DNA of 64,000 nucleotides from Candidatus Heimdallarchaeum aukensis (GTDB lineage: Archaea; Asgardarchaeota; Heimdallarchaeia; Heimdallarchaeales; Heimdallarchaeaceae): assembly GCA_021513695.1 (NCBI GenBank), contig CP084166.1:2976001-3040000 (forward strand), in the 5' to 3' direction. The translations under genes were made by a program, and so were the position numbers. Below, one piece after another: positions 8,440 through 61,115 of the stretch. Every line of letters begins with the position of its first letter. Positions within the stretch are counted from its first letter, which is position 1. Below the pieces are notes generated by a model that worked only from the letters and a program-made list of their open reading frames with translations, was not told the DNA's origin and ran no database searches.

Positions 8440-9009
8440 TTGATTATGTCAGCATTTGGTGTCGTCAAAATTGTACTACTTGGAGACTATGCTGCAGGAA
8501 AAACAACTCTAAAAAGAAGTTTTATGGGTCTTCATTTAGATGAAGTATACTTAAGCACTTTAGGAGTTGATCTAGCTTCTTATCATTTCGTTGATGATAA
8601 CTTTGATTTAAAGTATCAAATATGGGATCTCGGAGGGCAACCAGAATTTAAGACTATACGTGTTCAACAATATAAAGGTACAGAAGGAGGGTTACTTGTT
8701 TTTGATAAAGCAAGAGTTGAGACTTTCGAACATTTATCTGATTGGTTAGAAGAGCTTAGTAGCTCAATCTCTAATCGTGTTCCTATTTTCTTAATAGGTA
8801 ATAAATCAGATCTTCTTTCTCATGAAGAAAATGCTGAAATGGATAGAAAGGCAGAGAAATTTATAGAAGATAATCAAAATACTTACCCCGAGATTGATCT
8901 TAAAGGTTATTTTGCAACATGTGCTTTAACTGGTGAAAACGTTAGAGAAGCTTTTTTAGCTCTTGGTAAAGAAATAATTAAAATAAAGAGCGATAGAATG
9001 CTCATTTAA
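8440..9009 (+). CDS. Rab/Ras-like small GTPase (eukaryote-signature, Asgard-type)
   Basis: G1 GDYAAGKT; switch I YLSTLGVD (Rab TIGVDF-like); G3 WDLGGQ; G4 GNKSD; G5 TCALTGENVREAF (compare Rab ETSAKTGENVEEAF). No C-terminal CAAX/CC prenylation motif. Confidence 0.85.
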   Translation: MIMSAFGVVKIVLLGDYAAGKTTLKRSFMGLHLDEVYLSTLGVDLASYHFVDDNFDLKYQIWDLGGQPEFKTIRVQQYKGTEGGLLVFDKARVETFEHLSDWLEELSSSISNRVPIFLIGNKSDLLSHEENAEMDRKAEKFIEDNQNTYPEIDLKGYFATCALTGENVREAFLALGKEIIKIKSDRMLI

Positions 9010-9102
9010 ATAGTAAGTAATTTTGTTCTTTCTCAATTTGCCATAGAATAGAACACAACATTCTTATTGATAATTTTTTAAAGCCTTATAACATTAAATA
9101 AT

Positions 9103-33181: not shown

Positions 33182-34573
33182 TTGCGTTCTCTAAGTGTGT
33201 GCACAAAAATTTTGGAAGAGCAAGGAATAAACTATTCTATATACGAACTTGATTCTAAGTCGTTTAGCATAATAGACCCAAGAGTAAAAAAAAGAATAGA
33301 ACAAGTGAAACAAATAGCTGAGAGCTTGAATTGTGTAGTAGGAATAGTTGGTGGATTTATTCGAGACTTGTTATTAAAAAAACCGAGTAAAGATGTTGAT
33401 TTTGTAGTTATTGAAGGTGATTTAGAAAAATTAACAGAAGAAATTGCAAAAAAACTAAAGGCAAAAAAGGCTATAATTCATAACCAAACCTTAACTACGC
33501 AAATACGCTTCGGAGAAGGAATAGTATTTGAGTTTAATGCACCTAGAGTGGAAAGTTATGAGCCTTTGTCTCGCGTCCCAAAGGTAAGAAGAGGAACAAT
33601 AATAGATGATTTAACAAGGAGAGATTTCACTATCAATTCTTTTATACTTTTTGAAAACAAATACTTAGACATTTTTAACAGTAAAAAAGATCTTCTTGAA
33701 GGGATCATTAGAACTACAAGAGAACCATCAATTGTTTTCTCTGAAGATTACTTAAGAATATTTAGAGCAATAAGATTCGCATGTTTACTGGATTTTAAGA
33801 TAGAAGAGAAAACAAAGAAAGGAATAATAGAGAATGCACATCAGCTTAGTTTTGTAGCTAAAGAAAGAATAATTGAAGAGATAAGATTGACAGCTAAAAA
33901 GGATATAGTTTGCTGTTTCAAATTAATGACAGAACTGGCAATTATTCATACTCTTTTTCCTGAATTGAAAAACGAAAAAATAAATGATACTTACATAGTT
34001 TCTTTAAAATATGAAAAAATAGAGAAAGAGCTAGAACTTGTCAAACAACAAAAAGGGATAAACTATTTCCTTTGTTTTTTTGCTTTAGTAATGAAAGAAC
34101 AATTTATTGAAAAGGAAAATTATCTGGCAAAAATCAAAAATGAATTAAAAAAATTCAAGTTTTCAAAAAAAGAGATAGAAAAAATTTTGCTTATTATTAA
34201 ATATTCAAATACTCTAATACACCACATTTTTTATCCTGTTTCAAAAAAAGAATTAGGATTATTGTTAAGAGAAATATTTGAAATTAGAGAAGAAGTTATA
34301 GCTATAAATATTGCAGAAAACAAACTCTTAAAGAAGAAAAATAAAAATTTAGAAAAAATAATAGGCGATTTAAGAGAATTAAGTAAAGATAAAGAACTAA
34401 TTTTTATAAAACCTGCAGTAAATGGTAATGAACTAATGGAATTGGGAATAAAAAAAATGGAAATAAATCAATGTAAAGAATTTTTAATACATGCCTTGAT
34501 GGATGAGCAGCTAGAAAACACAAAGGAAGAATGTATTAAATATGTTAAAAGATATTATCTCCAGAAACGATAG
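33182..34573 (+). CDS. class II nucleotidyltransferase (bacterial/eukaryotic-type CCA-adding enzyme / poly(A) polymerase head domain) protein
   Basis: GIVGGFIRDLLL…DVDFVV (GGxxRD…DxD pol-beta NT motif), RRDFTINS motif; 463 aa. Confidence 0.7.
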   Translation: MRSLSVCTKILEEQGINYSIYELDSKSFSIIDPRVKKRIEQVKQIAESLNCVVGIVGGFIRDLLLKKPSKDVDFVVIEGDLEKLTEEIAKKLKAKKAIIHNQTLTTQIRFGEGIVFEFNAPRVESYEPLSRVPKVRRGTIIDDLTRRDFTINSFILFENKYLDIFNSKKDLLEGIIRTTREPSIVFSEDYLRIFRAIRFACLLDFKIEEKTKKGIIENAHQLSFVAKERIIEEIRLTAKKDIVCCFKLMTELAIIHTLFPELKNEKINDTYIVSLKYEKIEKELELVKQQKGINYFLCFFALVMKEQFIEKENYLAKIKNELKKFKFSKKEIEKILLIIKYSNTLIHHIFYPVSKKELGLLLREIFEIREEVIAINIAENKLLKKKNKNLEKIIGDLRELSKDKELIFIKPAVNGNELMELGIKKMEINQCKEFLIHALMDEQLENTKEECIKYVKRYYLQKR

Positions 34574-42057: not shown

Positions 42058-42309
42058 ATGAAGAAAAAAAAGAAAGAGAAAAAAGAAAAGCCAATGCGAG
42101 ATAGAGTGGAAGTTTGTCCGATTTGTTTTTCAATTGTAAAAAGATCTCCCCAAATCTTTGATGTCAACAGTACTTTTCACTGTACTAATAGTGATTGTGG
42201 ATGGAGTGGTTCTTTTGCTGTGGAAGTAGATATTAACGAGTATAAGCAATTTGTTAAGGATAGACAAAACAAAAATGAAAGTGATAAGAATAGTAGAGAT
42301 GAACCATAA
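42058..42309 (+). CDS. small zinc-ribbon protein (hypothetical)
   Basis: CPIC…HCTNSDCG; lysine-rich N-terminus. Confidence 0.45.
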   Translation: MKKKKKEKKEKPMRDRVEVCPICFSIVKRSPQIFDVNSTFHCTNSDCGWSGSFAVEVDINEYKQFVKDRQNKNESDKNSRDEP

Positions 42310-42348: not shown

Positions 42349-43188
42349 AAAATGGAAATAGCAATTGTTACTGATACAAGTAGAGCACTACCTTCCCAAT
42401 TATATAAATTATACAATGTCTATCCTTTAGGTTATTATTTAGAGGATTCTAAAGGAACGATCTTTGCAGAAAGAGTTAGTGCTCAAGAAGTTCAAACAGA
42501 TAAACTTCTAACAATTGCTGAAAAAGATAAGAATGCCCAACTTTACTCTCCGACTGTAAAGGACTTTGTAGAGTTATACACCTTTTTAGAGGAAGATTTT
42601 GATCATATAATTAGCTTTCATTCTTCGTTATTTACTCCAACTGTTTTTGAAAATGCTATACTTGCAAAAAAGGTAGTTTCTGATATAACAGTTGATGTTC
42701 TGGATACTTATTCTTTTGAGTCTTCCTCAGGATTGATTTTAAATCAGCTAGCTAAAAAAATTCAAGATGCAGAATCAATCAATGAAATAAGAAAAGAAAG
42801 TTTTTCTCTTCATGGTAGAATACATAGTCAATTATTAACAAAAAATGACCAATTCAACAAAATAGGATTAAGAAGAGTTACATTCCTTTCAAATATAAAA
42901 TCAGCTTTTGTTCCTTGGAATCTTTATTTGTTTAAACAAAGTAACTGGGATCTAGTCAAAAATTCTCGTTCAATAAAGACTCTACAATCAGAAATGGAAA
43001 CAAGACTAATCTCTCTTGAAAAATCCAAAGATTTGAAATTTTGTTATTATTCATCTTCAAAAAGACTGAACAAAGAAGTAAAAGAACTTCTAGAAAAATT
43101 GGATAATTTATATGTTGAAGAAACTCCTCAAACTTTAGTCGCCTATTTTCTCACTTCAGAATACTCAATGAATATTTCTGTTCTTTAA
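42349..43188 (+). CDS. divergent DegV-family-like protein
   Basis: MEIAIVTDTSRALPSQ… resembles the DegV N-terminus (IxIVTDSxxDLP). Start chosen at Met12 of the track ORF. Confidence 0.5.
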   Translation, partial: KMEIAIVTDTSRALPSQLYKLYNVYPLGYYLEDSKGTIFAERVSAQEVQTDKLLTIAEKDKNAQLYSPTVKDFVELYTFLEEDFDHIISFHSSLFTPTVFENAILAKKVVSDITVDVLDTYSFESSSGLILNQLAKKIQDAESINEIRKESFSLHGRIHSQLLTKNDQFNKIGLRRVTFLSNIKSAFVPWNLYLFKQSNWDLVKNSRSIKTLQSEMETRLISLEKSKDLKFCYYSSSKRLNKEVKELLEKLDNLYVEETPQTLVAYFLTSEYSMNISVL

Positions 43189-43982
43189 CTCTCTTCTTTT
43201 ACTGTTTTTATTCTATAAAAATTTGAAACATTTTCTGTTGTAATATCTGCCAGTTTTTTTACATCCACTTTAATTAATTCTGCAGCTTTTTTTGTTGATA
43301 TTGCTATGGCAGAAGGTTCGTTTTTTTCTCCTTTTCTTAAGCTATGATATGGACTATCAGTTTCAAACATTAACTGAGTTTCCGGAATCAAAGACAAGAT
43401 TTTTTGGAAATTTTTTCTGTAAACTAAACTTGTTGGGACTGTAACAAACCAACCATTATCAACTACTCTTTCAATCTCATTTTCTGTTCCTGTAAAACAG
43501 TGCATTAAAACGTTTTCTAGATTATATGATTCAAGAATATTGATTGCATCTGTTTCTGCAGCTCTCGAATGGATTACAATTGGTTTGTTATTTTTATTTG
43601 CGAGTTCAATAAGACGTCTGAAGAAAACTTTCTGTTCTTTTCTTTTTTCTTCTTCTTTAACCCAATAGTAATCTAATCCAATTTCACCTATAGCTACTAT
43701 AAATTCTGAATTTTTTAATAAAAATTCTTCAATTTTCTTGAAGTTTTCTTCTTCTACTTCTGTTGGTTGCATTCCAATGGTTAGATGAGTCCCATAGTTT
43801 TTTGTTAAAAATACTCCGAATTCAAAGTGATGAGGGCTTAAAATACTATTTATAATTATTTCAACGTTATTTGATCTAGCTCTTTGAACAATTTCTGGTA
43901 TACTTTTTTTTGAGAAAAAAGGAGGGTAAAGGTGACAATGAGCATCTGCAAAAATTATTTTCTGATTTGACATATAATTCAC
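43185..43982 (-). CDS. TatD-family metal-dependent hydrolase/DNase
   Basis: FADAHCHL N-terminal motif, about 265 aa TIM-barrel hydrolase. Confidence 0.8.
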   Translation of the reverse strand: MNYMSNQKIIFADAHCHLYPPFFSKKSIPEIVQRARSNNVEIIINSILSPHHFEFGVFLTKNYGTHLTIGMQPTEVEEENFKKIEEFLLKNSEFIVAIGEIGLDYYWVKEEEKRKEQKVFFRRLIELANKNNKPIVIHSRAAETDAINILESYNLENVLMHCFTGTENEIERVVDNGWFVTVPTSLVYRKNFQKILSLIPETQLMFETDSPYHSLRKGEKNEPSAIAISTKKAAELIKVDVKKLADITTENVSNFYRIKTVKEES

Positions 43983-44959
43983 TATTTACAAATTATATCT
44001 TTTAGCTTCTTGAGCATCTTTATTCCGCGAATTTCTTGGTTGAAAGCTTCAACAGTAGTTACATCATGGTTTGGAAAAGCTTGTTTGATGTACTCTAAAT
44101 TAGCTAAATGCTCTTTTCTTCTATTCATACAGTAAGGACAACTTTTATTTTCTGGATTAATTTGATTGACAACTATTTCTTTATTCGGAATATAATGTTC
44201 TTTTAATTCTTCAAATAGTCGTTCTGACTCAAAAATAGACATAAGTGTAGGAATTCCAACAATTATAAATTGTGTCTTTTCATCATCCATTAGTGTTTCT
44301 CTGGCTATAAGTATCTTCTCTTTTAATTTTTCTAAGTTCTCTATTGTTCTATCTTTTTCTACATTTCCGCCAAAAAGAGATTTAATCATTGCCATTGTAT
44401 TAGAAATGAAGGTTTTCATTTTCAACATTCTACCAATAAAAGAATCTAAAAATTCTGGAATGTTGAGTAATCTCAATGTATGTCCTGTGGGCGCAGTGTC
44501 AAGTACAATCGTGTCGAATTCTTCATTATCCGCATACTCAAGGATTTTAGCAAAAGATAGAGCTTCATCCATTCCTGGTGGAGGGATTGATTTTAGATCT
44601 TGATCTATTCCCTTCATTGCTTCCATTCCTGGAATAGACATCAAACTAGAGAATTGATCTGCATCAAAGGAATCTCCTAATGCTTTTGTTAGTTCATCTC
44701 CTGATGATTCTGGGTTGATTTCTAAAGCGTACAATTCTCCTTTTACACCTTTAACTTTAGTTACAGTTCCAGATGAAAAATCCAAATCAAAAGAATCTGA
44801 AATGCTGTGTGCAGGGTCTGTTGAAACAAGTAAAGTTTTTTTACCTTTTTCAGCTAAAGCAATAGAAATTGCAGAAGCTATAGAAGTTTTCCCTACTCCT
44901 CCTTTTCCCCCTACCAAAATGAACTTTAGGTCCTTCTCTAATAAATCCTTGATAGTCAT
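43982..44959 (-). CDS. ArsA/Get3-family ATPase (tail-anchored protein targeting factor-like) with CxxC motif
   Basis: P-loop GGKGGVGKTS, TDPAHS, DTAPTGHTLRLL signature, CPYC motif near the C-terminus. Confidence 0.8.
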   Translation of the reverse strand: MTIKDLLEKDLKFILVGGKGGVGKTSIASAISIALAEKGKKTLLVSTDPAHSISDSFDLDFSSGTVTKVKGVKGELYALEINPESSGDELTKALGDSFDADQFSSLMSIPGMEAMKGIDQDLKSIPPPGMDEALSFAKILEYADNEEFDTIVLDTAPTGHTLRLLNIPEFLDSFIGRMLKMKTFISNTMAMIKSLFGGNVEKDRTIENLEKLKEKILIARETLMDDEKTQFIIVGIPTLMSIFESERLFEELKEHYIPNKEIVVNQINPENKSCPYCMNRRKEHLANLEYIKQAFPNHDVTTVEAFNQEIRGIKMLKKLKDIICK

Positions 44960-45073
44960 TAATATAGAAAAAAATCGACTCTTATTTAAAGATAAATATT
45001 AGTGATTAATAGAACTTTTAAGTAAAATAAAAAAAACTCTCGAAAAATAAAAATAGATAAAGAAAACAAATTT

Positions 45074-45838
45074 TTACTTTCTACGTTTTCTTTTCTTAAT
45101 TTTTCTTTTTTGTTCTTGTTTTGTTTTATGTGGTTTTTTAACCAATGGGGAAATCTTTCTTGAACTTCTTCTTCGTTTATGAACTTTCTGTATAGCGAAT
45201 AAATCTACAATGATTATAGTAGTGAATACTCCAACGATACCCAAGACAAAATAGAATAAGTTTAACCATTTTTCCGAGTCTATAACTTCTACATTTTCAG
45301 GTAATACGACATTTAACGAGTATCTTTGAGAATAAGACTTGTACATAACACTATTTTCATCATAGTATTTTATCTCTGTGGCTTCTAAGGTAAAGTTTCC
45401 TTCAAGTAAAGGTTGGATGTAATAAGTATAAACGAAGCTAGCATTTATTTCAACTTGTATATACTTTTGCTCTGTCAAATTAAAAGTTGAAACTGCCCAC
45501 TCTTCAAAGCTTGGTTCTGTAATAGAAAGATTATACGCTGTTCTGTTTCCAATATTGGTTATATTTAGGTCAATTCTAATCCATTGCAAAGGCTCAAGTT
45601 CAGTAACGTTAATTACCTTCTTTATAGCTAAAAGTGGTCTGCTAGGTAATGTATCATTAGTGTCATTTAATGCTAAATATGGTCGATAGTAATTTCTCTC
45701 TGGTTCCTGAATTTTTTGAATCTGGTCATTGTTGTTTATTACACTGTTGGAACCACTAATAAATGATGAATTTACAGCTAAAACTAACATCACAACTAAT
45801 ACAAATCGTAAATACTTTCTTCCGGGCATATGTTTCAT
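45074..45838 (-). CDS. secreted N-glycosylated surface protein with C-terminal TM anchor and long basic tail
   Basis: Signal peptide, many NxT/S sequons, C-terminal TM, then KVHKRRRSSRK…KRKIKKRKRRK. Confidence 0.55.
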   Translation of the reverse strand: MKHMPGRKYLRFVLVVMLVLAVNSSFISGSNSVINNNDQIQKIQEPERNYYRPYLALNDTNDTLPSRPLLAIKKVINVTELEPLQWIRIDLNITNIGNRTAYNLSITEPSFEEWAVSTFNLTEQKYIQVEINASFVYTYYIQPLLEGNFTLEATEIKYYDENSVMYKSYSQRYSLNVVLPENVEVIDSEKWLNLFYFVLGIVGVFTTIIIVDLFAIQKVHKRRRSSRKISPLVKKPHKTKQEQKRKIKKRKRRK

Positions 45839-46045
45839 TATCCTTTTATTGCTTATGGAGCATGAAATAATCTCGTTTAAATATTTTGCTCTTGGAACTA
45901 GAAATAAGCTAGCGCTTTATTTACTTATCGCCTATTTTTTTCCTTATATTTAGATGTTATTTTAAGAATTCTAGGTAACAATATTTTATGGTAAAAGAAC
46001 ATAGTAACAATTATAAAAAGGTGGATTTGTTTTAAATTGAGAGCA

Positions 46046-46936
46046 ATGACTGTTAAAATTCTATGTGATACTAGTGCAGATTTGAATCTTCCCACTGATC
46101 AAACAATCTATGACAAATATAACATTGGAACTTTTCCCATGCATGTTATTTTTGGAACGAATGATTATAGAGAATTAGTTGACATAAAAACTTCTGAATT
46201 CAGGAAAAAGATCTATGAAACAGATGTTCATCCCACCACTTCTCAACCAACACAATTTGATATCTTAACACAATTTGAGAAGTTTGGAAAAGACTACGAT
46301 GAAATCATATCATTTCATATCTCATCAAAATTAAGTGGGAGCTATGCTAATGCAAAAATAGCTAAAAAAATGTATGAGAAATCAAATAAAGAACATGCTA
46401 AAGTGTATTTAGTTGATAGTTTATTAGCTAGTTCAGCTTTTGGACTTGTAGTTATTAAAGCCGCTAAGTTAGCAGAAGAAGGTCTGTCTGGACAAGAAAT
46501 AGTTGATAAAATAAACGATTGGAAAAAAAATAATATAGTTGTTTATTTCACTGTAGAGAACTTAGAGTGGCTTTATCGCGGAGGTAGATTAAGTAAAACT
46601 AAGTACTATTTAGGTAGCATGTTAAACAAAAAACCAGTTTTAACATTAGTTGATGGAGAAATTGTGAGTGCAAAGACTGTTACAGGAATAGAAAAAACTT
46701 TTGATACTATAATTGACCTTGCCTTTAAACGCTTTCCAGAAGTTGAGCAGGAGAGAATAATGTACAATATTATCGAATTTGATTACAAAGATGTAGTAGA
46801 TGATGTAATTCAGAAAACGAAAAACAAGTATCCTAATGCTAAAGAAGGAAAAGTGTTTGAAATGGGAGGAACAATTGCAGCTCATACTGGTCCAAAAACT
46901 CTAGGGTTTATTGTTACCAAAGATTTTGAATTTTAA
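46046..46936 (+). CDS. DegV-family protein (tandem paralogue 1 of 3)
   Basis: MTVKILCDTSADL… (track ORF starts 9 nt upstream, at 46037). Confidence 0.8.
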   Translation: MTVKILCDTSADLNLPTDQTIYDKYNIGTFPMHVIFGTNDYRELVDIKTSEFRKKIYETDVHPTTSQPTQFDILTQFEKFGKDYDEIISFHISSKLSGSYANAKIAKKMYEKSNKEHAKVYLVDSLLASSAFGLVVIKAAKLAEEGLSGQEIVDKINDWKKNNIVVYFTVENLEWLYRGGRLSKTKYYLGSMLNKKPVLTLVDGEIVSAKTVTGIEKTFDTIIDLAFKRFPEVEQERIMYNIIEFDYKDVVDDVIQKTKNKYPNAKEGKVFEMGGTIAAHTGPKTLGFIVTKDFEF

Positions 46937-47003
46937 TTTCTTTTTTTTCTTTTCTTTTTTGGAAAAAGATTTATTCAACACATTTTAAGTTAGTTTGAAA
47001 TAG

Positions 47004-47912
47004 ATGACAATAAAGATTTTGTGTGATACTTCAGCTGATCTTGTCTTACATCCAAATAAGCCACTGTATGACTCGCTAGGTGTTGGAATTCTTCCCATGA
47101 AAGTTTTTTTTGATGAGAATGATGTTTTTTTAGAGCAAAAAAATATTAGTAACATACAGTTTTATGAGTTAATAAGACTCTCCCAGACCCAACCTAAAAC
47201 CTCTCCTCCTTCAGCAGATGATATATTTAAAGAATTTCAAAGATATGGAAGAGAATATGATGAACTAATTTCTTTACATATTTCTAAAGATTTAAGTCAT
47301 ACATATTTTAACGCTGTTGAAGCAAAGAAGAGATACTTGAAAACTGAATCAAATCCAGCCAAAATAAATATAATTCATAGTGGTGTTGCAAGTTTAGCTC
47401 TGGGAAAACTTGTATTGAAAGCTGTTGAACTTAAAAATAAAGGTTTTGAAACTTCTGAAATTATAAAACAACTTTATTCTTGGAAAGAAAATAATGTTAA
47501 AGCAGCTTTTACTGTTAGAGATTTAAATTGGTTATATGAAGGAGGAAGACTTACAAGGTCACAGAAAACAATAGGTACAATATTAAATAAAAAACCTGTT
47601 CTTACTTTTGATCATGGAAAAATCAATGTAATTGGTTATTCAACAGGATTGGAAAGAACATTGAGATTTATGGTTAAATATCTCTTATCACAGATGGAGG
47701 AGGAGAAAATAAACAAACTTACCTTGTCTTTTATCACAGCACAGAATTTTGGTTTAATAGATGACTTCTCAAGAGTAATAAAGAAAGAATTTCCGAAAAT
47801 TAATTTAGGTCCTAAATTTGAGCTAGGTGCAACAATTACTAGCCATACAGGAATGGAGACAATAGGTTTTGTAATTTCAAGTAATCTTAAAATAGATCCT
47901 TTAATAAAATAA
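47004..47912 (+). CDS. DegV-family protein (tandem paralogue 2 of 3)
   Basis: MTIKILCDTSADL…; …LYEGGRLTRSQ… conserved with its neighbours. Confidence 0.8.
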   Translation: MTIKILCDTSADLVLHPNKPLYDSLGVGILPMKVFFDENDVFLEQKNISNIQFYELIRLSQTQPKTSPPSADDIFKEFQRYGREYDELISLHISKDLSHTYFNAVEAKKRYLKTESNPAKINIIHSGVASLALGKLVLKAVELKNKGFETSEIIKQLYSWKENNVKAAFTVRDLNWLYEGGRLTRSQKTIGTILNKKPVLTFDHGKINVIGYSTGLERTLRFMVKYLLSQMEEEKINKLTLSFITAQNFGLIDDFSRVIKKEFPKINLGPKFELGATITSHTGMETIGFVISSNLKIDPLIK

Positions 47913-48035
47913 TTAACTTAACTTTAATGTTTTCTTACGTGTTGGCTATATTTGCCACTATAAAACAAGAATCTTTAAAGATTTTTTTCTTAAAAAAGAT
48001 TTAAAAAAAAGCGTTTTATATACAATTGAACACAA

Positions 48036-48926
48036 ATGACAGTAAAAATAATGACCGATAGTGCAGCAGATATTCCCGAATATCTCCTAAAGGAGTATGA
48101 TATCTCTACAGTCCCCACAGTAATCAGATTTGGTGATGATGTCTATTATGAAAACAAAGATTTGACTTTGGATCAATACTATGAACTATTTCATTCTCAT
48201 CCAGAACCACCTCAAACAGCTAATCCTACTTTAGCTGATGACTTTGAATTATACAAAAAACTAGGAGAAGAAGCTGATGAAGTGATAAATATTGTTATTT
48301 CTAGCGGTATTTCTGGTTCATTCAACACTTCTAATGCTGCTTTGAAAATGTATGAAAAGAGAGTAAAAGATGGTGCAAAAGTATATGTCTTTGATTCACA
48401 TTTTGCTACAATGGGTATAGGTGTCCAAGCTTTAAAGGCTTCAGAGATGGCTAAAGAAGGACATAATGCAGCTGAAATATTGGCAATGTTAGAAGAATAC
48501 AGAGACAAATTAGCTGTTGCTTTCACAGTAGATAATTTAAAGTATCTCCATAGAGGAGGAAGATTGTCAAAATCTAAATTTTGGATAGCCAAACTAGCTG
48601 ACTTACATCCTGTGATTACTTTTATTGATGGAAAAATGGAAGTTGAAAAGACTTCTAGAGGTTATGATAATGCAATGGAAAAAGCTTTTGATCTATCTTG
48701 GGAAAAAACGAATAAAGCTAAGAAATTCAATGCCTATATCTGTTATGGAGAAAATAAAGAACACGCTCTATACATGAGAGATTATATCCAAGATAAAGTA
48801 GATGCAGAATTTAATATCGAGATATATCAAGTAGGAGCAACAATAATTACCCATACAGGTCCAGAAGTAAGTGGAATACTGCTTGATCCTTATAATGAAA
48901 AACTCTATAAAGCATCAGAAAAATAG
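48036..48926 (+). CDS. DegV-family protein (tandem paralogue 3 of 3)
   Basis: MTVKIMTDSAADIP…; …LHRGGRLSKSK…. Confidence 0.8.
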   Translation: MTVKIMTDSAADIPEYLLKEYDISTVPTVIRFGDDVYYENKDLTLDQYYELFHSHPEPPQTANPTLADDFELYKKLGEEADEVINIVISSGISGSFNTSNAALKMYEKRVKDGAKVYVFDSHFATMGIGVQALKASEMAKEGHNAAEILAMLEEYRDKLAVAFTVDNLKYLHRGGRLSKSKFWIAKLADLHPVITFIDGKMEVEKTSRGYDNAMEKAFDLSWEKTNKAKKFNAYICYGENKEHALYMRDYIQDKVDAEFNIEIYQVGATIITHTGPEVSGILLDPYNEKLYKASEK

Positions 48927-48927
48927 G

Positions 48928-49665
48928 ATGGATTGTATGATATCCTTTGATGCTTTTTTCTTTGACTTAGATGGGACTTTAATAGACTTTAATCCCAATA
49001 ATTTTGTAAAAATCTATTTAGGAGCTGCTGCAAAGTATTTTAAGGATTTGATACCTGATAGTGACTATTTTATTCAATCAATATTAGATTCAACAAATGT
49101 AATGGAAATGGCTGAAACTCCAAAGAAACTAGCTTTATACGACTTTTTTGATGATTTTTGTCAAAAGTTCGATCCTGAATGTTCAACTATAATTCAGAGA
49201 TTTAGAAATTTCTATAATGAAGGTTTTAATGTAGTAGAGAAAATTATAAGACCTATTCCTTACGCTGAAACTGTTCTTTCATTTATTAGAGACAATTATC
49301 CAAAAAGCAAAATTGTTCTAGCAACAAATCCGGTTTTTCCAGAAGTAGCTATTATTAAAAGATTGAACTGGGGGGGATTGTCAGAAAATCTTTTTGATTA
49401 CATTACCCATGCTGAAAATAGCTATTATTGTAAAGGTTCTTTAAATTATTGGATAGACTTAGCAAAAAAACTTGATGTGAAACCTGAGAAAACATTGGTT
49501 GTAGGAAATGATGGAGAACGTGATATGATTGCCAAAAAAGCTGGTTTCAAGACATTCTTTTTGACACAAACTGCTGAAAATGAGCACTCCATAGAGAAAT
49601 ACAAACCGGACTACAAAGGGAGCTTGGAATCACTATTAAATTTATTAAATGAAAAGAAAGACTAA
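48928..49665 (+). CDS. HAD-superfamily hydrolase
   Basis: DAFFFDLDGTLID motif I; …VGNDGERDM… motif IV-like. Start chosen at the ATG right after the DegV stop. Confidence 0.7.
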   Translation: MDCMISFDAFFFDLDGTLIDFNPNNFVKIYLGAAAKYFKDLIPDSDYFIQSILDSTNVMEMAETPKKLALYDFFDDFCQKFDPECSTIIQRFRNFYNEGFNVVEKIIRPIPYAETVLSFIRDNYPKSKIVLATNPVFPEVAIIKRLNWGGLSENLFDYITHAENSYYCKGSLNYWIDLAKKLDVKPEKTLVVGNDGERDMIAKKAGFKTFFLTQTAENEHSIEKYKPDYKGSLESLLNLLNEKKD

Positions 49666-49839: not shown

Positions 49840-51543
49840 TTATTCTTTTACTGCTTTAATAACTTCTTTGTATTTGTAGAAGGCTAGTCTTTTGTGGCCA
49901 TTTTCTGCTACTAAACCGTTTAAATTAGCAGTAATAGTTCTATCCATCAAAGGATCACATATGAAACCAGTTATCTTCTGGTTATTTACCACTATTTCCA
50001 GCTGTCTAGCTAGGGTTCCTGCTTGAATTCTTTCTCCATACATCATAGGTGAAAAACTTGTTGAACTAATCCACACAGTCTTATTAGCTTGTACAGTTAT
50101 ATTCAGGTATTCATCGAAATTGAGGTCTCTATCTTGATAAACATAAATGTTGATTATTGCTAAATCAATAGTCGTAGAATTCCATAAATTATCGAACAAT
50201 CCGCTATCAATATCATCTAAGGTTACAGAAACTGCAACTTTTGTTTTATTAGAAAGTGAATGAATTAAGTTAGCAGTATTATTTATTGCTTGTGTCCAAT
50301 CGTTATTTGTTATAGTTTCTTCAGGATTCATGAAATAAGTTTGAAAAACAATTGGTTGAGGATAGATTACAAGATAATCTGGTTCATAATTTTCAACTAT
50401 CATTTGAGCCTCCATTTCTATTGTATTACTGTAATTTGCAAATGACTCATAGGGATAGCTCCATGTAGCATTTCCATAGGCAAAAAGAGCAATTTTCAAT
50501 CCTTCTGATTTAAGAGCATTGAGCATATTACCAAAAGATGTTTGATTTGCTAGAATAATATCAGTTAACACATCAATAGATACTGTATCTACTCCTAATT
50601 CTCTTATAAGATCAAGTTCTAGTGAAAAAATTTCTTCATAGTTTGATGGTAAAAAGGTTTGAAAGCTTCCAGTTCTAAGTGAAACAGCAAAACTAAAGTC
50701 TTCTCTTTGTATGTATGTTGGTTGATAATTTTTAGCAGTATATTGACTTAAAGATGATAGCACTCCCACTCCAATCATGCTAAATATTATTAAGAACAGG
50801 ACAATAAAAACAAAAATACCTTTTACTCCATTACTAAGAAAAGTCCCTATTCCTCTTTTTTCTTTCTTTTCTTGTTCTTTTTCTATTCTTTCAAGAAAAA
50901 CAGTACTTTTCTTTCTTGAAACTTTTTCTCCTTTTTTTTCTTGAGAAACAGCTTTTTTAGAAATTTGCTTCTTTTCTTCATCTACACTTTTTATTTTTCC
51001 TTTTTCAAAAAGATCAATAGGTATTGCTATCGGAATCAATATAAATAGTGGATACCAATAAGCTGTTCCTCCTGTAAAGAACAGAGCTTGAAGTAATCCA
51101 TATGAGATAGAAGGAATTGTTAATATCCAATTTAGAAAACGAGGAAGGTTTAATACGGTATAAGAAGCAATTACGTTTAATAATATTAGCGTTGAATATA
51201 AAGCCATAAAACTGAAAATTATTCCTCCCATACGCTTTAGAAAATCTGTTTCACTCTTGAAAATATAGACAGTAGCGATAATGTTGTTTACGCACAAGAA
51301 AAGAAAGCCAAAAAATCCAAGAAAGCCTGTAGACGGTAAATATAATCTTATGAACCATATAAAAGAAGATAGAGTTCCGATTGAAATCAATGCAGATGAG
51401 ATTAATGACCAAATAAACTGTTTATCTCTTTTCTTTCTTGAAAGATTCTTGTAAAGTGTTTTTACTACTATTACCATATTAAAAATAAATGCGAGAAATA
51501 TTAATACTATCGCACCATTTGTCCCAAGTAAAGCTGCCATCAT
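49840..51543 (-). CDS. polytopic membrane protein with large C-terminal extracytoplasmic TIM-barrel-like (glycoside-hydrolase-like) domain, hypothetical
   Basis: About 7 N-terminal TM helices, Lys/Glu-rich linker, about 330-aa C-terminal domain with N-glycosylation sequons. Confidence 0.5.
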   Translation of the reverse strand: MMAALLGTNGAIVLIFLAFIFNMVIVVKTLYKNLSRKKRDKQFIWSLISSALISIGTLSSFIWFIRLYLPSTGFLGFFGFLFLCVNNIIATVYIFKSETDFLKRMGGIIFSFMALYSTLILLNVIASYTVLNLPRFLNWILTIPSISYGLLQALFFTGGTAYWYPLFILIPIAIPIDLFEKGKIKSVDEEKKQISKKAVSQEKKGEKVSRKKSTVFLERIEKEQEKKEKRGIGTFLSNGVKGIFVFIVLFLIIFSMIGVGVLSSLSQYTAKNYQPTYIQREDFSFAVSLRTGSFQTFLPSNYEEIFSLELDLIRELGVDTVSIDVLTDIILANQTSFGNMLNALKSEGLKIALFAYGNATWSYPYESFANYSNTIEMEAQMIVENYEPDYLVIYPQPIVFQTYFMNPEETITNNDWTQAINNTANLIHSLSNKTKVAVSVTLDDIDSGLFDNLWNSTTIDLAIINIYVYQDRDLNFDEYLNITVQANKTVWISSTSFSPMMYGERIQAGTLARQLEIVVNNQKITGFICDPLMDRTITANLNGLVAENGHKRLAFYKYKEVIKAVKE

Positions 51544-52950: not shown

Positions 52951-53204
52951 TTTCAATTGGAAAAAATAAAAACAAAGATAAAACTTGAGTTAAGAAATAG
53001 TAAAGTAACTTTTATTTAATTAGCAAAGATATCTATTCTTAAAGATAATATTACTGTTATCACTTTAAAATATATTTTTGTAATTTTCAAAAAAATAGAA
53101 ACGATTATCTATGTTATTAGCTGAACTTCAATATCTGACTAATTGATTATATTAATAAAGTACAGTGTTTTCTCTTTGTTAGATAGGAAAGAGTGTTGAT
53201 ACGT

Positions 53205-53792
53205 ATGGCTAGATGTAAATATTGTAACAAAATAATTCCCGATGAAGCTGAATTTTGTCCTTACTGCGGAAAAAAGAAGCCTATAAGAAAAATTGTGGGT
53301 GAAATCGAAGACATAACAAAAAAAGTTAGAGAAAAAATCGAAAAAAGAATTCCCACTATAAGGAAACAAGCTTTAGAAATACTAGACAGATTGTCATCTA
53401 AAGCAAAACAAGCTTCTCTTCCAGATTTTGTGGATAGAACAAAGGTTATCTCAATTCTTAATGATTTGAAAGCTAAATTAGATACTGAAACTGATCAATC
53501 CAAGATACAAGAATACTCTGAATGGGCTAATTTGATTGAGCAGACGATTAGTGGAGAAAATTGTATAATTTGTTATCAACCATTTGATATTCATAAAGAT
53601 GGTCATTTAGACGTCTCTCTCTGCCCTTCATGTCATTATGCCGCTCACGTTAATCATTTTGAAGCTTGGTTAGACAAAAAAGCTGTATGTCCAATATGTA
53701 AGGCTTCAATATCTAAAAATCAACTAGTTCGAGGGTATATTCAACATAAAGAAGGTGAAATTGTTTTTACTTCTTCAGAAAAACAATTTTAA
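53205..53792 (+). CDS. zinc-ribbon + RING/PHD-type (C4H2C2) zinc-finger protein
   Basis: N-terminal CKYC…CPYCG; C-terminal CIICYQPF-x16-CPSC-HYAAH-VNH-x10-CPICK matches C-x2-C-x(9-21)-C-x2-C-x4-H-x2-H/C-x10-C-x2-C treble-clef spacing. Confidence 0.6.
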   Translation: MARCKYCNKIIPDEAEFCPYCGKKKPIRKIVGEIEDITKKVREKIEKRIPTIRKQALEILDRLSSKAKQASLPDFVDRTKVISILNDLKAKLDTETDQSKIQEYSEWANLIEQTISGENCIICYQPFDIHKDGHLDVSLCPSCHYAAHVNHFEAWLDKKAVCPICKASISKNQLVRGYIQHKEGEIVFTSSEKQF

Positions 53793-59615: not shown

Positions 59616-61115
59616 TCACTTAATCCAACTTTTACTCCTTTTTACGGCCTCGTGCCATTTTTCTAGCATCTTGTCTTTTTTGTCGGCATCTAGGTGAGGA
59701 GTGAATTCAATATCAATACTAAAATTCTTTTCGATATCTGTTAAATTCTCCCAATATTCGACTGCTAATCCAGCTAGGTAAGCAGCTCCTAGGGCTGTAG
59801 TCTCCTTCACTAGTGGGCGTTGAACAACAGTTTGAGAAATATCAGATTGGAACTGGAGAAGAGGATCGCAATTTGTTACTCCTCCATCGACTCGAAGAAC
59901 AGGAATATCTTTTCCAGAATCCTTCTTCATTGCGTCTATAACATCTTGAGATTGAAAAACAATTGATTCTAGTGCTGCACGTATAATGTGGTTGCTTGTA
60001 GTAGCTTGGGTTAAACCTATGATTATTCCTCTAGCAAATGAGTCCCAGTATGGAGCACCTAAACCAACAAAAGCAGGCACCAAATAAACTCCTTCAGTCG
60101 TCGGAGTTCGATTCATTACTTCTGTAGTTTGTTTTACATCTGGAAGAATACCTATTTTATTCTTTAACCAGTTTAATAGTGCACCAGTGATAAATACACT
60201 CCCTTCAAGAGCATAAGTAATATTGTCATTATCCAACTTCCATGCGATAGTTGACAATAATCCATTTTTTGAGAAAACTATATCTTCTCCTGTATTTTGT
60301 AGGAGAAAGTTACCTGTTCCATAAGTATTTTTAACAGAACCTGGTTGAAAACATGTTTGTCCAAAAAGTGCAGCTTGTTGGTCTCCAGCAGCACCAGAAA
60401 CAGGAATAGAAACAGAAAAAAGATCTTTTTTTGTTTCACCATAGGTATTCTTATCACTTGAAGGTTTAATATCTGGAAGAGCATAAATTATGTCTTCTGG
60501 TAAACCAATTGTTTCTATAAGCTCATCGTCCCAAGTCCCTTTGTGAATATTCATAAGTAAAGTTCTTGATGCATTAGAATAGTCTGTAACGTGATTTCCT
60601 GTTAGGTTATAAATTAACCAAGAGTCAATAGTTCCAATTTGTAGTTTTCCGCTGTTTAACTTATCTCTTACTTTAGGAACATTTTCAATCAACCATTTTA
60701 TTTTTGTTCCAGAGAAATATGGGTCTAGAACCAATCCAGTCTTCTCTTTAAACAATTCAGAATAGTCCTTCCTTAGGTCTTCACAAAAGTTAGCTGTTCT
60801 CCTACACTGCCAAACAATAGCATTGTACAAAGGCTTACCGTTTTCTTTATCCCAAACAACAATAGTTTCTCTCTGATTTGTTATTCCAATTGCAGAAATT
60901 TGAGAGAAATCTATTTTTTCCTTGTTTACTGCGTCTATAATTACCTTTAAAGAATTTTTTAAAATTTCTTCCGGATTGTGTTCAACCCAACCTTCATTCG
61001 GAAAAATCTGTTGATGCTCTAAATAGGAGTTAGAAACCTCCAAACCTTTCTTATTAAATATTATTGCTCTAGTTCCCGTTGTTCCTTGATCGATTGCTAA
61101 GATATAATTATTCAT
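59616..61115 (-). CDS. glpK: glycerol kinase
   Basis: N-terminus ILAIDQGTTGTRAIIF; FGGY kinase motifs; 499 aa. Confidence 0.9.
   Translation of the reverse strand: MNNYILAIDQGTTGTRAIIFNKKGLEVSNSYLEHQQIFPNEGWVEHNPEEILKNSLKVIIDAVNKEKIDFSQISAIGITNQRETIVVWDKENGKPLYNAIVWQCRRTANFCEDLRKDYSELFKEKTGLVLDPYFSGTKIKWLIENVPKVRDKLNSGKLQIGTIDSWLIYNLTGNHVTDYSNASRTLLMNIHKGTWDDELIETIGLPEDIIYALPDIKPSSDKNTYGETKKDLFSVSIPVSGAAGDQQAALFGQTCFQPGSVKNTYGTGNFLLQNTGEDIVFSKNGLLSTIAWKLDNDNITYALEGSVFITGALLNWLKNKIGILPDVKQTTEVMNRTPTTEGVYLVPAFVGLGAPYWDSFARGIIIGLTQATTSNHIIRAALESIVFQSQDVIDAMKKDSGKDIPVLRVDGGVTNCDPLLQFQSDISQTVVQRPLVKETTALGAAYLAGLAVEYWENLTDIEKNFSIDIEFTPHLDADKKDKMLEKWHEAVKRSKSWIK

Follow-up and report, generated by a model that had tools for sequence, protein, structure and literature searches.

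The 64,000-nucleotide stretch of the Candidatus Heimdallarchaeum aukensis genome analyzed in this work (contig CP084166.1; hereinafter, the window) harbors five genes of the DegV family, all of them on the forward strand. Three of these genes, here referred to as D1, D2, and D3, are arranged head to tail in an array, and the other two, D4 and D5, are located apart from it. D1–D4 are members of the DegV/FakB family according to both their sequences and their signature residues, and D5 according to its sequence and modelled fold only. Orthologues of D3, of D4, and of D5 are found in syntenic positions throughout the Heimdallarchaeaceae; the set is largely inherited family-wide, and only the tandem array grows. 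We assign a roughly even probability (about 50%) to the reading in which D1–D4 act as bacterial-type FakB fatty-acid carriers, with D3 and D4 feeding an unlinked FakA-type kinase that would produce acyl-phosphate.

Family Assignment and Divergence of the DegV Genes

The original prediction for this DNA listed five DegV-like genes, and all of them were recovered, on the plus strand: each product exceeds the gathering cut-off of the Pfam family PF02645 (27 bits), with scores ranging from 54 to 256 bits, and the N-termini quoted for them were correct. The array begins with D1 (46046–46936, +; 296 residues; PF02645, 226 bits; TIGR00762, 240 bits), which is followed by D2 (47004–47912, +; 302 residues; PF02645, 172 bits) and by D3, the core member of the array (48036–48926, +; 296 residues; PF02645, 256 bits); 67 bp separate D1 from D2, and 123 bp separate D2 from D3. 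D4 (11819–12676, +; 285 residues; PF02645, 239 bits) lies separately from the array, and its public annotation, of 282 residues, places the start three codons further in. The fifth gene, D5, had been placed at 42349–43188; the open reading frame (ORF) does extend from 42349, and the start is most likely the ATG at position 42352, as in the gene call, giving a product of 278 residues (42352–43188, +). The PF02645 match of D5 (54 bits; more precisely, 53.8) covers profile positions 2–158 only and is confined to the N-terminal half of the protein. The NCBIfam model TIGR00762, with a cut-off of 99.7 bits, is passed by D1–D4 (187–260 bits), and D5 falls below it (53 bits).

The members of the array had been described as recognizably different from each other, and this is borne out by the pairwise identities of 38.5% (D1–D2), 31% (D1–D3), and 29% (D2–D3). 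The identity of D4 with the others is 25–29%; D5 can be aligned with the other DegV proteins over about 150 N-terminal residues only, with 23–27% identity. These identities show that the paralogues diverged long ago. Among the proteins of known structure, 25 distinct DegV/FakB sequences can be aligned with D3 from end to end; B. subtilis DegV (3fys, E = 6e-37) is the best match, and T. thermophilus 2dt8 and S. aureus FakB1 are further top matches. This alignment indicates the two-domain EDD/DegV fold. The equivalog model of FakB1 (NF038249, cut-off 350 bits) is not reached by any of the five proteins (133–167 bits for D1–D4 and 25 bits for D5), and they are not orthologues of the staphylococcal FakB1.

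An ORF of 126 codons lies antisense within D3 (48212–48592, −) and has a shorter counterpart in Ca. H. endolithica; most likely, it merely mirrors the conservation of the sense gene and is not a gene in its own right.

Signature Residues and Ligand Tunnel

In FakB proteins, a Thr, a Ser, and a His hold the fatty-acid carboxylate, and an arginine at the tunnel entrance is needed for the kinase reaction (PMC10848957, PMC8892158); this catalytic arginine (Arg173 in FakB1, Arg170 in FakB2) doubles as a latch for the ligand (PMC8892158). A further arginine (Arg205 in FakB1, Arg202 in FakB2) is involved in the docking of FakA and in the encounter with the membrane (PMC9136124, PMC8892158), and it has been termed completely conserved (PMC8892158).

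The five corresponding positions (62, 95, 173, 205, and 270, in SaFakB1 numbering) were mapped through a MAFFT alignment. D3 and all of its 54 close homologues (P0001–P0054) have T, S, R, R/K, and H at these positions, and D4 of Heimdallarchaeum has T, S, R, R, and H. D1, D2, and their orthologues have T, S, R, T/S, and H, with a Thr at position 205 in both D1 and D2. Within the D4 lineage, position 205, which lies in a gap-free, well-aligned stretch, is occupied by R/K in 16 out of 51 proteins and by T, A, S, or other residues in the rest. The Thr62-Ser95-His270 combination is present in D1–D4, in all the homologues of the D3 lineage, and in 50 of the 51 proteins of the D4 lineage, the exception being a truncated fragment of 220 residues; moreover, the GGR/SGR motif with Arg173 is present in D1–D4 and in every member of their lineages.

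At the tunnel-lining positions, among them 121, 158, 162, 191, 263, and 271, the residues are mostly hydrophobic or small in D1–D4, and polar or aromatic in D5. In the order D1/D2/D3/D4, they are A/A/A/G at position 121, V/A/V/A at 158, Y/T/W/Y at 180, L/L/I/M at 191, M/L/V/L at 263, and T/T/T/L at 271. The tunnel residues thus vary among the four paralogues, and they are unlike their counterparts in the bacterial reference proteins. According to the original prediction, each paralogue may be tuned to a different acyl chain, but it has been stated that tunnel residues do not predict acyl specificity (PMC12288450). From this pattern of residues, we infer that D1–D4 may bind fatty acids.

Archaeal Host and Authenticity of the Loci

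The window is Asgard archaeal, since it encodes TFIIB, a Ras-family GTPase, and CCDC47-like, TRAP-beta-like, and Get3/ArsA-like proteins. The occurrence of DegV/FakB-type genes in an archaeal host, as originally proposed, is upheld by the family models that these genes pass and by the Asgard marker genes around them. The GC content of the window is uniform (about 0.31); that of the DegV genes ranges between 0.29 and 0.33, with a GC content at third codon positions (GC3) of 0.17–0.26, and their neighbors are alike. D4 is 100% identical to a named Ca. Heimdallarchaeum aukensis protein (P0190). Ca. H. endolithica PR6, whose 3.33 Mb chromosome is closed, has its genes in an identical order between the radical-SAM gene and the pyrimidine genes, with 79–98% amino acid identity; the counterpart of D3 is 94% identical and that of D1 is 90% identical. 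The ratio of nonsynonymous to synonymous substitution rates (dN/dS) between the two Heimdallarchaeum species is 0.064 for D1, 0.056 for D2, 0.051 for D3, and 0.055 for D5, that is, these genes are under purifying selection, with values comparable to those of the flanking genes. Bacterial contamination, which the original prediction had itself raised, is excluded for the DegV set, together with misassembly and pseudogene status, because of the uniform GC and GC3 values, the flanking Asgard genes, the gene order shared with H. endolithica, and the dN/dS of 0.05–0.06.

Conservation of the Array and of the D3-HAD-Membrane Protein Unit

The D3 sequence has 54 close homologues (41–99% identity), and all the named ones belong to the Heimdall group. 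D3 is the one type of array member common to every related genome examined: the array consists of a single DegV gene, of the D3 type, in the locus L140 ("Asgard group archaeon" GCA_013166775.1), of two in the loci L003 and L004, and of three in both Heimdallarchaeum species. The set had been presented as expanded in this archaeon, as opposed to a standard feature of its relatives. According to these data, expansion applies to the array, with its growth from one to two to three genes, and the family-wide orthologues of D3, D4, and D5 make these three genes largely such a standard feature.

The conserved neighborhood of the array comprises SUI1, D5, TatD, Get3, and TRAP-beta, then the DegV gene or genes, an HAD hydrolase, and a membrane protein of 567–584 residues. 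The HAD hydrolase, correctly reported as following the array, is conserved at that place in every relative examined. It is a HAD-IA-type enzyme with the DxDGT motif (48937–49665, +; 242 residues; PF00702, 48.5 bits), whose start is most likely at 48937, 10 bp after the stop of D3; it has weak matches to TIGR02253 and to PH1655 (2hoq), and its orthologue directly follows the D3-type gene in L002, L003, L004, and L140. The next gene (49840–51543, −) codes for a multi-pass membrane protein of 567 residues, with an N-terminal multi-pass region and a large C-terminal domain, for which no match was retrieved in Pfam, in NCBIfam, or among the PDB sequences. Its orthologues adjoin the HAD gene in L002–L004; in L140, the HAD gene is followed by a gene for a 584-residue protein without a Pfam match, which is likened to the 567-residue protein by its position. 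The membrane protein gene is on the same strand as the DegV-HAD unit in L003, L004, and L140, and it is inverted in Heimdallarchaeum. The D3-HAD-membrane protein arrangement is absent from the bacterial relatives examined, in which no HAD orthologue adjoins the DegV gene.

Between SUI1 and D5 lies an ORF for a lysine-rich Zn-ribbon protein of 83 residues (42058–42309, +; CPIC...C..C), 85% identical in H. endolithica; the product of 53193–53792 (+) combines a double zinc ribbon at the N-terminus with a weak, sub-threshold match to a RING finger at the C-terminus (PF13639, E = 2e-4).

Duplication History and the D4 Locus

A neighbor-joining tree with 100 bootstraps placed D1 and D2 in one clade with L003_9019 and L004_3077 (99% bootstrap). 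The D3 lineage is supported by 99% bootstrap, and the D1/D2 and D3 lineages are sisters (77%). Within their clade, D1 and D2 are mutual closest relatives with a bootstrap of 33% only, and their branch lengths are 0.38 for D1 vs. 0.75 for D2. The lineages of the tree and the counts of one, two, and three genes in different genomes show that the array grew as a D3-type gene was duplicated locally in tandem, with D1 and D2 as the products. The phylogeny suggested along with the original prediction gives this answer for D1 and D2. The D4 lineage (100% bootstrap) stands apart from D1–D3, the nearest small clade being the one with P0265 (50%), a protein whose gene adjoins that of the bacterial ribosomal protein bS21; D4 was either acquired independently or split off much earlier. 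Since even the closest bacterial proteins are only 31–38% identical to the DegV set, any transfer was ancient.

About 50 homologues of D4 were found, with 42–100% identity. In the window, D4 is directly downstream of the Ras-like GTPase and CCDC47-like genes, and the order conserved in other Heimdallarchaeaceae is amino-acid permease, zf-AN1, Usp, PurA, Ras GTPase, CCDC47-like, and D4, with Nnr convergent. Furthermore, homologues of eukaryotic endoplasmic reticulum (ER) membrane-protein-biogenesis factors adjoin DegV genes at 8440–10029 (+) and 43982–45838 (−); D1 and the TRAP-beta-like gene are oriented divergently, Get3/ArsA lies beside the latter, and this order is kept in several Heimdallarchaeaceae contigs. 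The adjacency of DegV genes to ER-biogenesis homologues reflects either a functional link or merely a slow rearrangement of the genome. In a more distant Asgard contig (L141), the D4-type gene adjoins a thermosome subunit gene, and an acylphosphatase gene (PF00708; 13729–14016, −) lies about 3 kb from it, probably by coincidence.

D5, a Degenerate DegV-Fold Protein

At the positions where Thr62, Ser95, and His270 are expected, D5 has Leu, Pro, and Tyr, and the three residues are missing from the D5 lineage as a whole; in D5, the GGR/SGR motif is absent, and the arginine aligned with Arg173 is unreliable. Two lines of comparison place it in the DegV family. The comparison of profiles (hhalign) gave a probability of 98% for DegV over 216 columns. 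The AlphaFold (AF2) model obtained with an alignment of canonical DegV proteins, which biases it towards their fold, has two domains, a predicted local distance difference test (pLDDT) value of 80.8, and a predicted template modelling score of 0.82; the pLDDT obtained from the single sequence is 36. The template modelling score (TM-score) of the model is 0.77–0.79 with DegV/FakB structures. D5 orthologues occur in L002, L003, and L140, and the family was seen in Heimdall-group contexts only; it is small, with four representatives at E ≤ 1e-10 among 1.84 billion proteins. On this evidence, the original "fifth DegV" keeps its family and its predicted fold and does not keep the fatty-acid-binding residues: it is a degenerate DegV-fold protein under purifying selection.

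The possibility that D5 represents a stand-alone FakA_C module was rejected, since the probability for FakA is 0.9% vs. 98% for DegV in hhalign and the TM-score with FakA_C (6W6B) is 0.46 vs. 0.77–0.79. The product of the 83-codon ORF upstream of D5 was likewise considered as a FakA middle domain and rejected, being a small Zn-ribbon protein with no resemblance to it. In the representative library, P0314, P0325, P0330, and similar proteins of 590–600 residues have a DegV-like stretch at residues ~310–480; these could be tandem DegV-DegV or kinase-DegV fusions.

Kinase Partner and Lipid Context

The search for a FakA partner was carried out with the B. subtilis FakA/YloV sequence, a query verified by its match to S. 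suis FakA 7w7h (558 bits) and by its 99% identity to P0069. Used against the protein collection, it returned only near-identical Bacillus proteins. Pfam scans of most of the larger ORFs of the window (about 47, of at least 110 residues) did not retrieve any Dak2 domain, and the scans of the window ORFs did not retrieve PlsY or PlsX either. In a scan of metagenomes for the AT-rich coding pattern of the DGDTGTNM motif, 120 loci with 137 FakA-like ORFs were found, none of them Heimdall-like and most of them from gut and other non-sediment metagenomes.

Published surveys provide a further view of the context. A nine-protein COG1461/K07030 (FakA) family is reported for heimdallarchaeial ancestors by Eme et al. 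2023 (PMC10307638, supplementary file 6), with a copy number of 1.37 in the "Heim" ancestor and of 1.33 in "Skadi" according to one reconstruction (PMC10307638). According to Coleman et al. 2019 (PMC6431249), archaea are without PlsX and PlsB, and PlsY is present in some Asgard bins, including Heimdallarchaeota LC_2. Heimdallarchaeum encodes a relative of the archaeal-type glycerol-1-phosphate dehydrogenase (Wu et al. 2022, supplementary text), and the supplements of the same work do not mention DegV, Dak2, PlsY, or acyltransferase. In the window, the glycerol kinase GlpK, which makes glycerol-3-phosphate, is encoded at 59616–61115 (−; 720 bits vs. a cut-off of 498); GlpK was found in only one Asgard genome of the sample of Coleman et al. 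2019 (PMC6431249), and according to a 2026 paper Asgard archaea seem to be without glpK.

Among the other neighboring genes, a UbiA-family prenyltransferase gene is located just upstream of the window start (L137, 6289–7353). The gene at 33182–34573 (+) codes for a protein with a PolyA_pol head and an RNA-binding domain (PF01743, PF12627), which, according to these domains, would be a class-II (bacterial/eukaryotic-type) CCA-adding enzyme or poly(A) polymerase; a 2026 preprint mentioning Heimdallarchaeum discusses this PolyA_pol/CCA type in Asgard archaea (10.64898/2026.05.29.728689). The tRNA and Rfam searches did not retrieve any RNA gene from the 64 kb of the window, and the scan of the window for sigma-70 promoters and terminators was uninformative, the sigma-70 model being bacterial and the host archaeal.

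Possible Roles of the DegV Set

In the reading that we favor, D1–D4 would be soluble carriers, each enclosing a single free fatty acid within its hydrophobic tunnel, with the carboxylate held by the Thr-Ser-His hydrogen-bond network beneath the "latch" arginine. D3 is the core gene, always coupled to the HAD hydrolase and to the membrane protein. Since D3, and D4 in Heimdallarchaeum, keep the surface arginine, the most likely mechanism would be one in which these two proteins take free fatty acids out of a membrane and hand them over to a FakA-type kinase encoded elsewhere in the genome, a step that we consider plausible. Acyl-phosphate is the substrate of PlsY-type acyltransferases, and the kinase product would pass to an enzyme of this type. 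D1 and D2, as tandem duplicates of a D3-type gene that lost the docking arginine, would probably be kinase-independent buffers or carriers, possibly with another ligand preference. Finally, D5 keeps the modelled fold but appears to have lost ligand binding, so that it may represent a structural or regulatory relic under selection.

D1–D4 share with the bacterial FakB/DegV proteins (S. aureus FakB1/FakB2, S. pneumoniae FakB1–3, and B. subtilis DegV; PF02645, COG1307) the length of 280–300 residues, the full-length alignment, the Thr-Ser-His network, and the catalytic/latch arginine. Several diverged paralogues per genome occur in Heimdallarchaeum as they do in Firmicutes, e.g., two in S. aureus, three in S. 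pneumoniae, and four in most isolates of E. faecalis (PMC12288450). The archaeal set differs from the bacterial one in its Asgard host, in its identity of 25–38% to any bacterial protein, in the absence of Arg205 from the D1/D2 lineage and most D4 orthologues, and in the fixed position of D3 beside the HAD hydrolase and the membrane protein. D5 resembles FakA_C (PDB 6W6B), which is DegV-like and without the conserved arginine, in having the DegV fold minus the ligand and carboxylate residues of FakB; unlike FakA_C, it is a stand-alone, full-length, two-domain protein, with no DhaL-like kinase domain adjacent to it. Lastly, the DegV set is, like the Asgard PlsY, PlsC, and GlpK (Villanueva 2017, Coleman 2019, Manoharan 2019), a bacterial-derived family of lipid metabolism with a patchy distribution among Asgard genomes, and it would act directly upstream of PlsY; unlike these genes, it is not sporadic here, since all of the Heimdallarchaeaceae share it in conserved synteny.

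Several observations weigh against this reading. A phmmer search with B. subtilis FakA found nothing in the window, in its 10 kb flanks, or in any of the related loci (about 229 kb, partly redundant); this is weak evidence, as FakA is often unlinked to fakB in bacteria. The docking Arg205 is lost in the whole D1/D2 lineage and is represented by R/K in the 16 of 51 D4-lineage proteins mentioned above, which argues that, in most paralogues, the coupling to a kinase is relaxed or absent; moreover, Arg205 also contacts the membrane, so its conservation in D3 alone is no proof of a kinase. In a second reconstruction, the copy number of COG1461/K07030 is about 0, with no tie to Heimdallarchaeum (PMC10307638). 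PlsC is absent from both Heimdallarchaeum species (Wu et al. 2022), and the only lipidomic study of an Asgard archaeon in culture that is cited in PMC13400652 revealed archaeal phospholipids only.

The lack of FakA in the roughly 229 kb searched and that of PlsC, together with a docking arginine that D1/D2 do not have and that varies within the D4 lineage, would also fit a set of kinase-independent carriers or buffers of environmental or partner-derived free fatty acids, with no acyl-phosphate made; these might protect the isoprenoid membrane, since free fatty acids are detergent-like, or supply acyl-CoA synthetases for beta-oxidation. The genes for the electron transfer flavoprotein (ETF) alpha and beta subunits, for an ETF-quinone oxidoreductase-like protein, and for a ferredoxin are located about 5–9 kb past the 3' end of the window (L136, 7708–11153). 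Proteins of these types are typical partners of acyl-CoA dehydrogenases, and their genes speak for the beta-oxidation variant. However, Arg173, needed for the bacterial kinase reaction, is invariant in D1–D4 and their relatives (being also the latch, it is not decisive), a basic docking residue is kept in D3 and in all 54 homologues, and the K07030 family is listed in heimdallarchaeial genomes. We regard carriers of this kind as the main rival explanation, possible but less probable than the reading that we favor.

The ligand might also be another carboxylated or phosphorylated archaeal lipid, e.g., an isoprenoid acid, with the HAD hydrolase and the membrane protein processing or receiving it. 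The conservation of the D3-HAD-membrane protein unit in the archaeal lineage only, its absence beside the bacterial relatives, the glycerol-1-phosphate dehydrogenase relative in the genome (Wu et al. 2022), and the tunnel residues unlike those of the bacterial reference proteins would agree with this idea. Nevertheless, it appears improbable, as the carboxylate network is unchanged, no specific alternative ligand is pointed to, and the matched DegV structures that name a ligand have straight, branched, or unsaturated fatty acids, or lipid/fatty-acid binding. Bacterial contamination, a misassembly, or a horizontal insertion of very recent date might be suspected, as most of the family by far is bacterial and so are the closest relatives outside the Heimdall group, but the compositional match with the flanking genes, the interleaving of the DegV genes with TFIIB, Get3, TRAP-beta, CCDC47, and Ras-GTPase genes, the gene order shared with a closed chromosome and with several independent metagenome-assembled genomes and metagenomes, and the existence, for each paralogue, of about 50 or more named Heimdall-group homologues with 45–74% identity refute this explanation.

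Implications for Lipid Metabolism in the Heimdallarchaeaceae

Public records already call these proteins "DegV family protein", and the finding is to this extent an annotation-level one. DegV/FakB was not among the genes surveyed in Villanueva 2017, Coleman 2019, and Manoharan 2019, and our search of the literature did not retrieve any paper linking DegV to Asgard archaea. What is new with respect to the published discussion is the Heimdall-group host, the family-wide synteny, the D3-HAD-membrane protein unit, the existence of entire lineages that have lost the "invariant" docking arginine, and the degenerate D5 family.

The lipids of eukaryotes are fatty-acyl esters of the bacterial type, and their origin from an archaeal host whose lipids were isoprenoid ethers has yet to be explained. 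Apart from PlsX, the FakB/FakA system is, to our knowledge, the only source of acyl-phosphate. Asgard genomes with PlsY/PlsC and without PlsX leave the acyl-phosphate substrate of PlsY without a known source (PMC6431249); therefore, a conserved set of FakB-type proteins offers a concrete experimental handle. In the boldest scenario, which we consider rather unlikely, D3 and D4 would serve as the FakB proteins of a working fatty acid kinase route, together with a FakA encoded elsewhere and an acyltransferase of the PlsY type; this route would build ester-linked acyl lipids from the fatty acids of a partner without PlsX, and D1/D2 and D5 would be neofunctionalized, kinase-independent lipid-transfer or regulatory proteins. 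If the kinase route proved true, part of the "lipid divide" transition would become directly testable in a living Asgard lineage. If the kinase proved absent, the set would represent the re-use of a bacterial lipid-binding fold in an archaeon, including variants without the "invariant" docking arginine. The DegV set hints at a bacterial-style handling of fatty acids in the Heimdallarchaeaceae.

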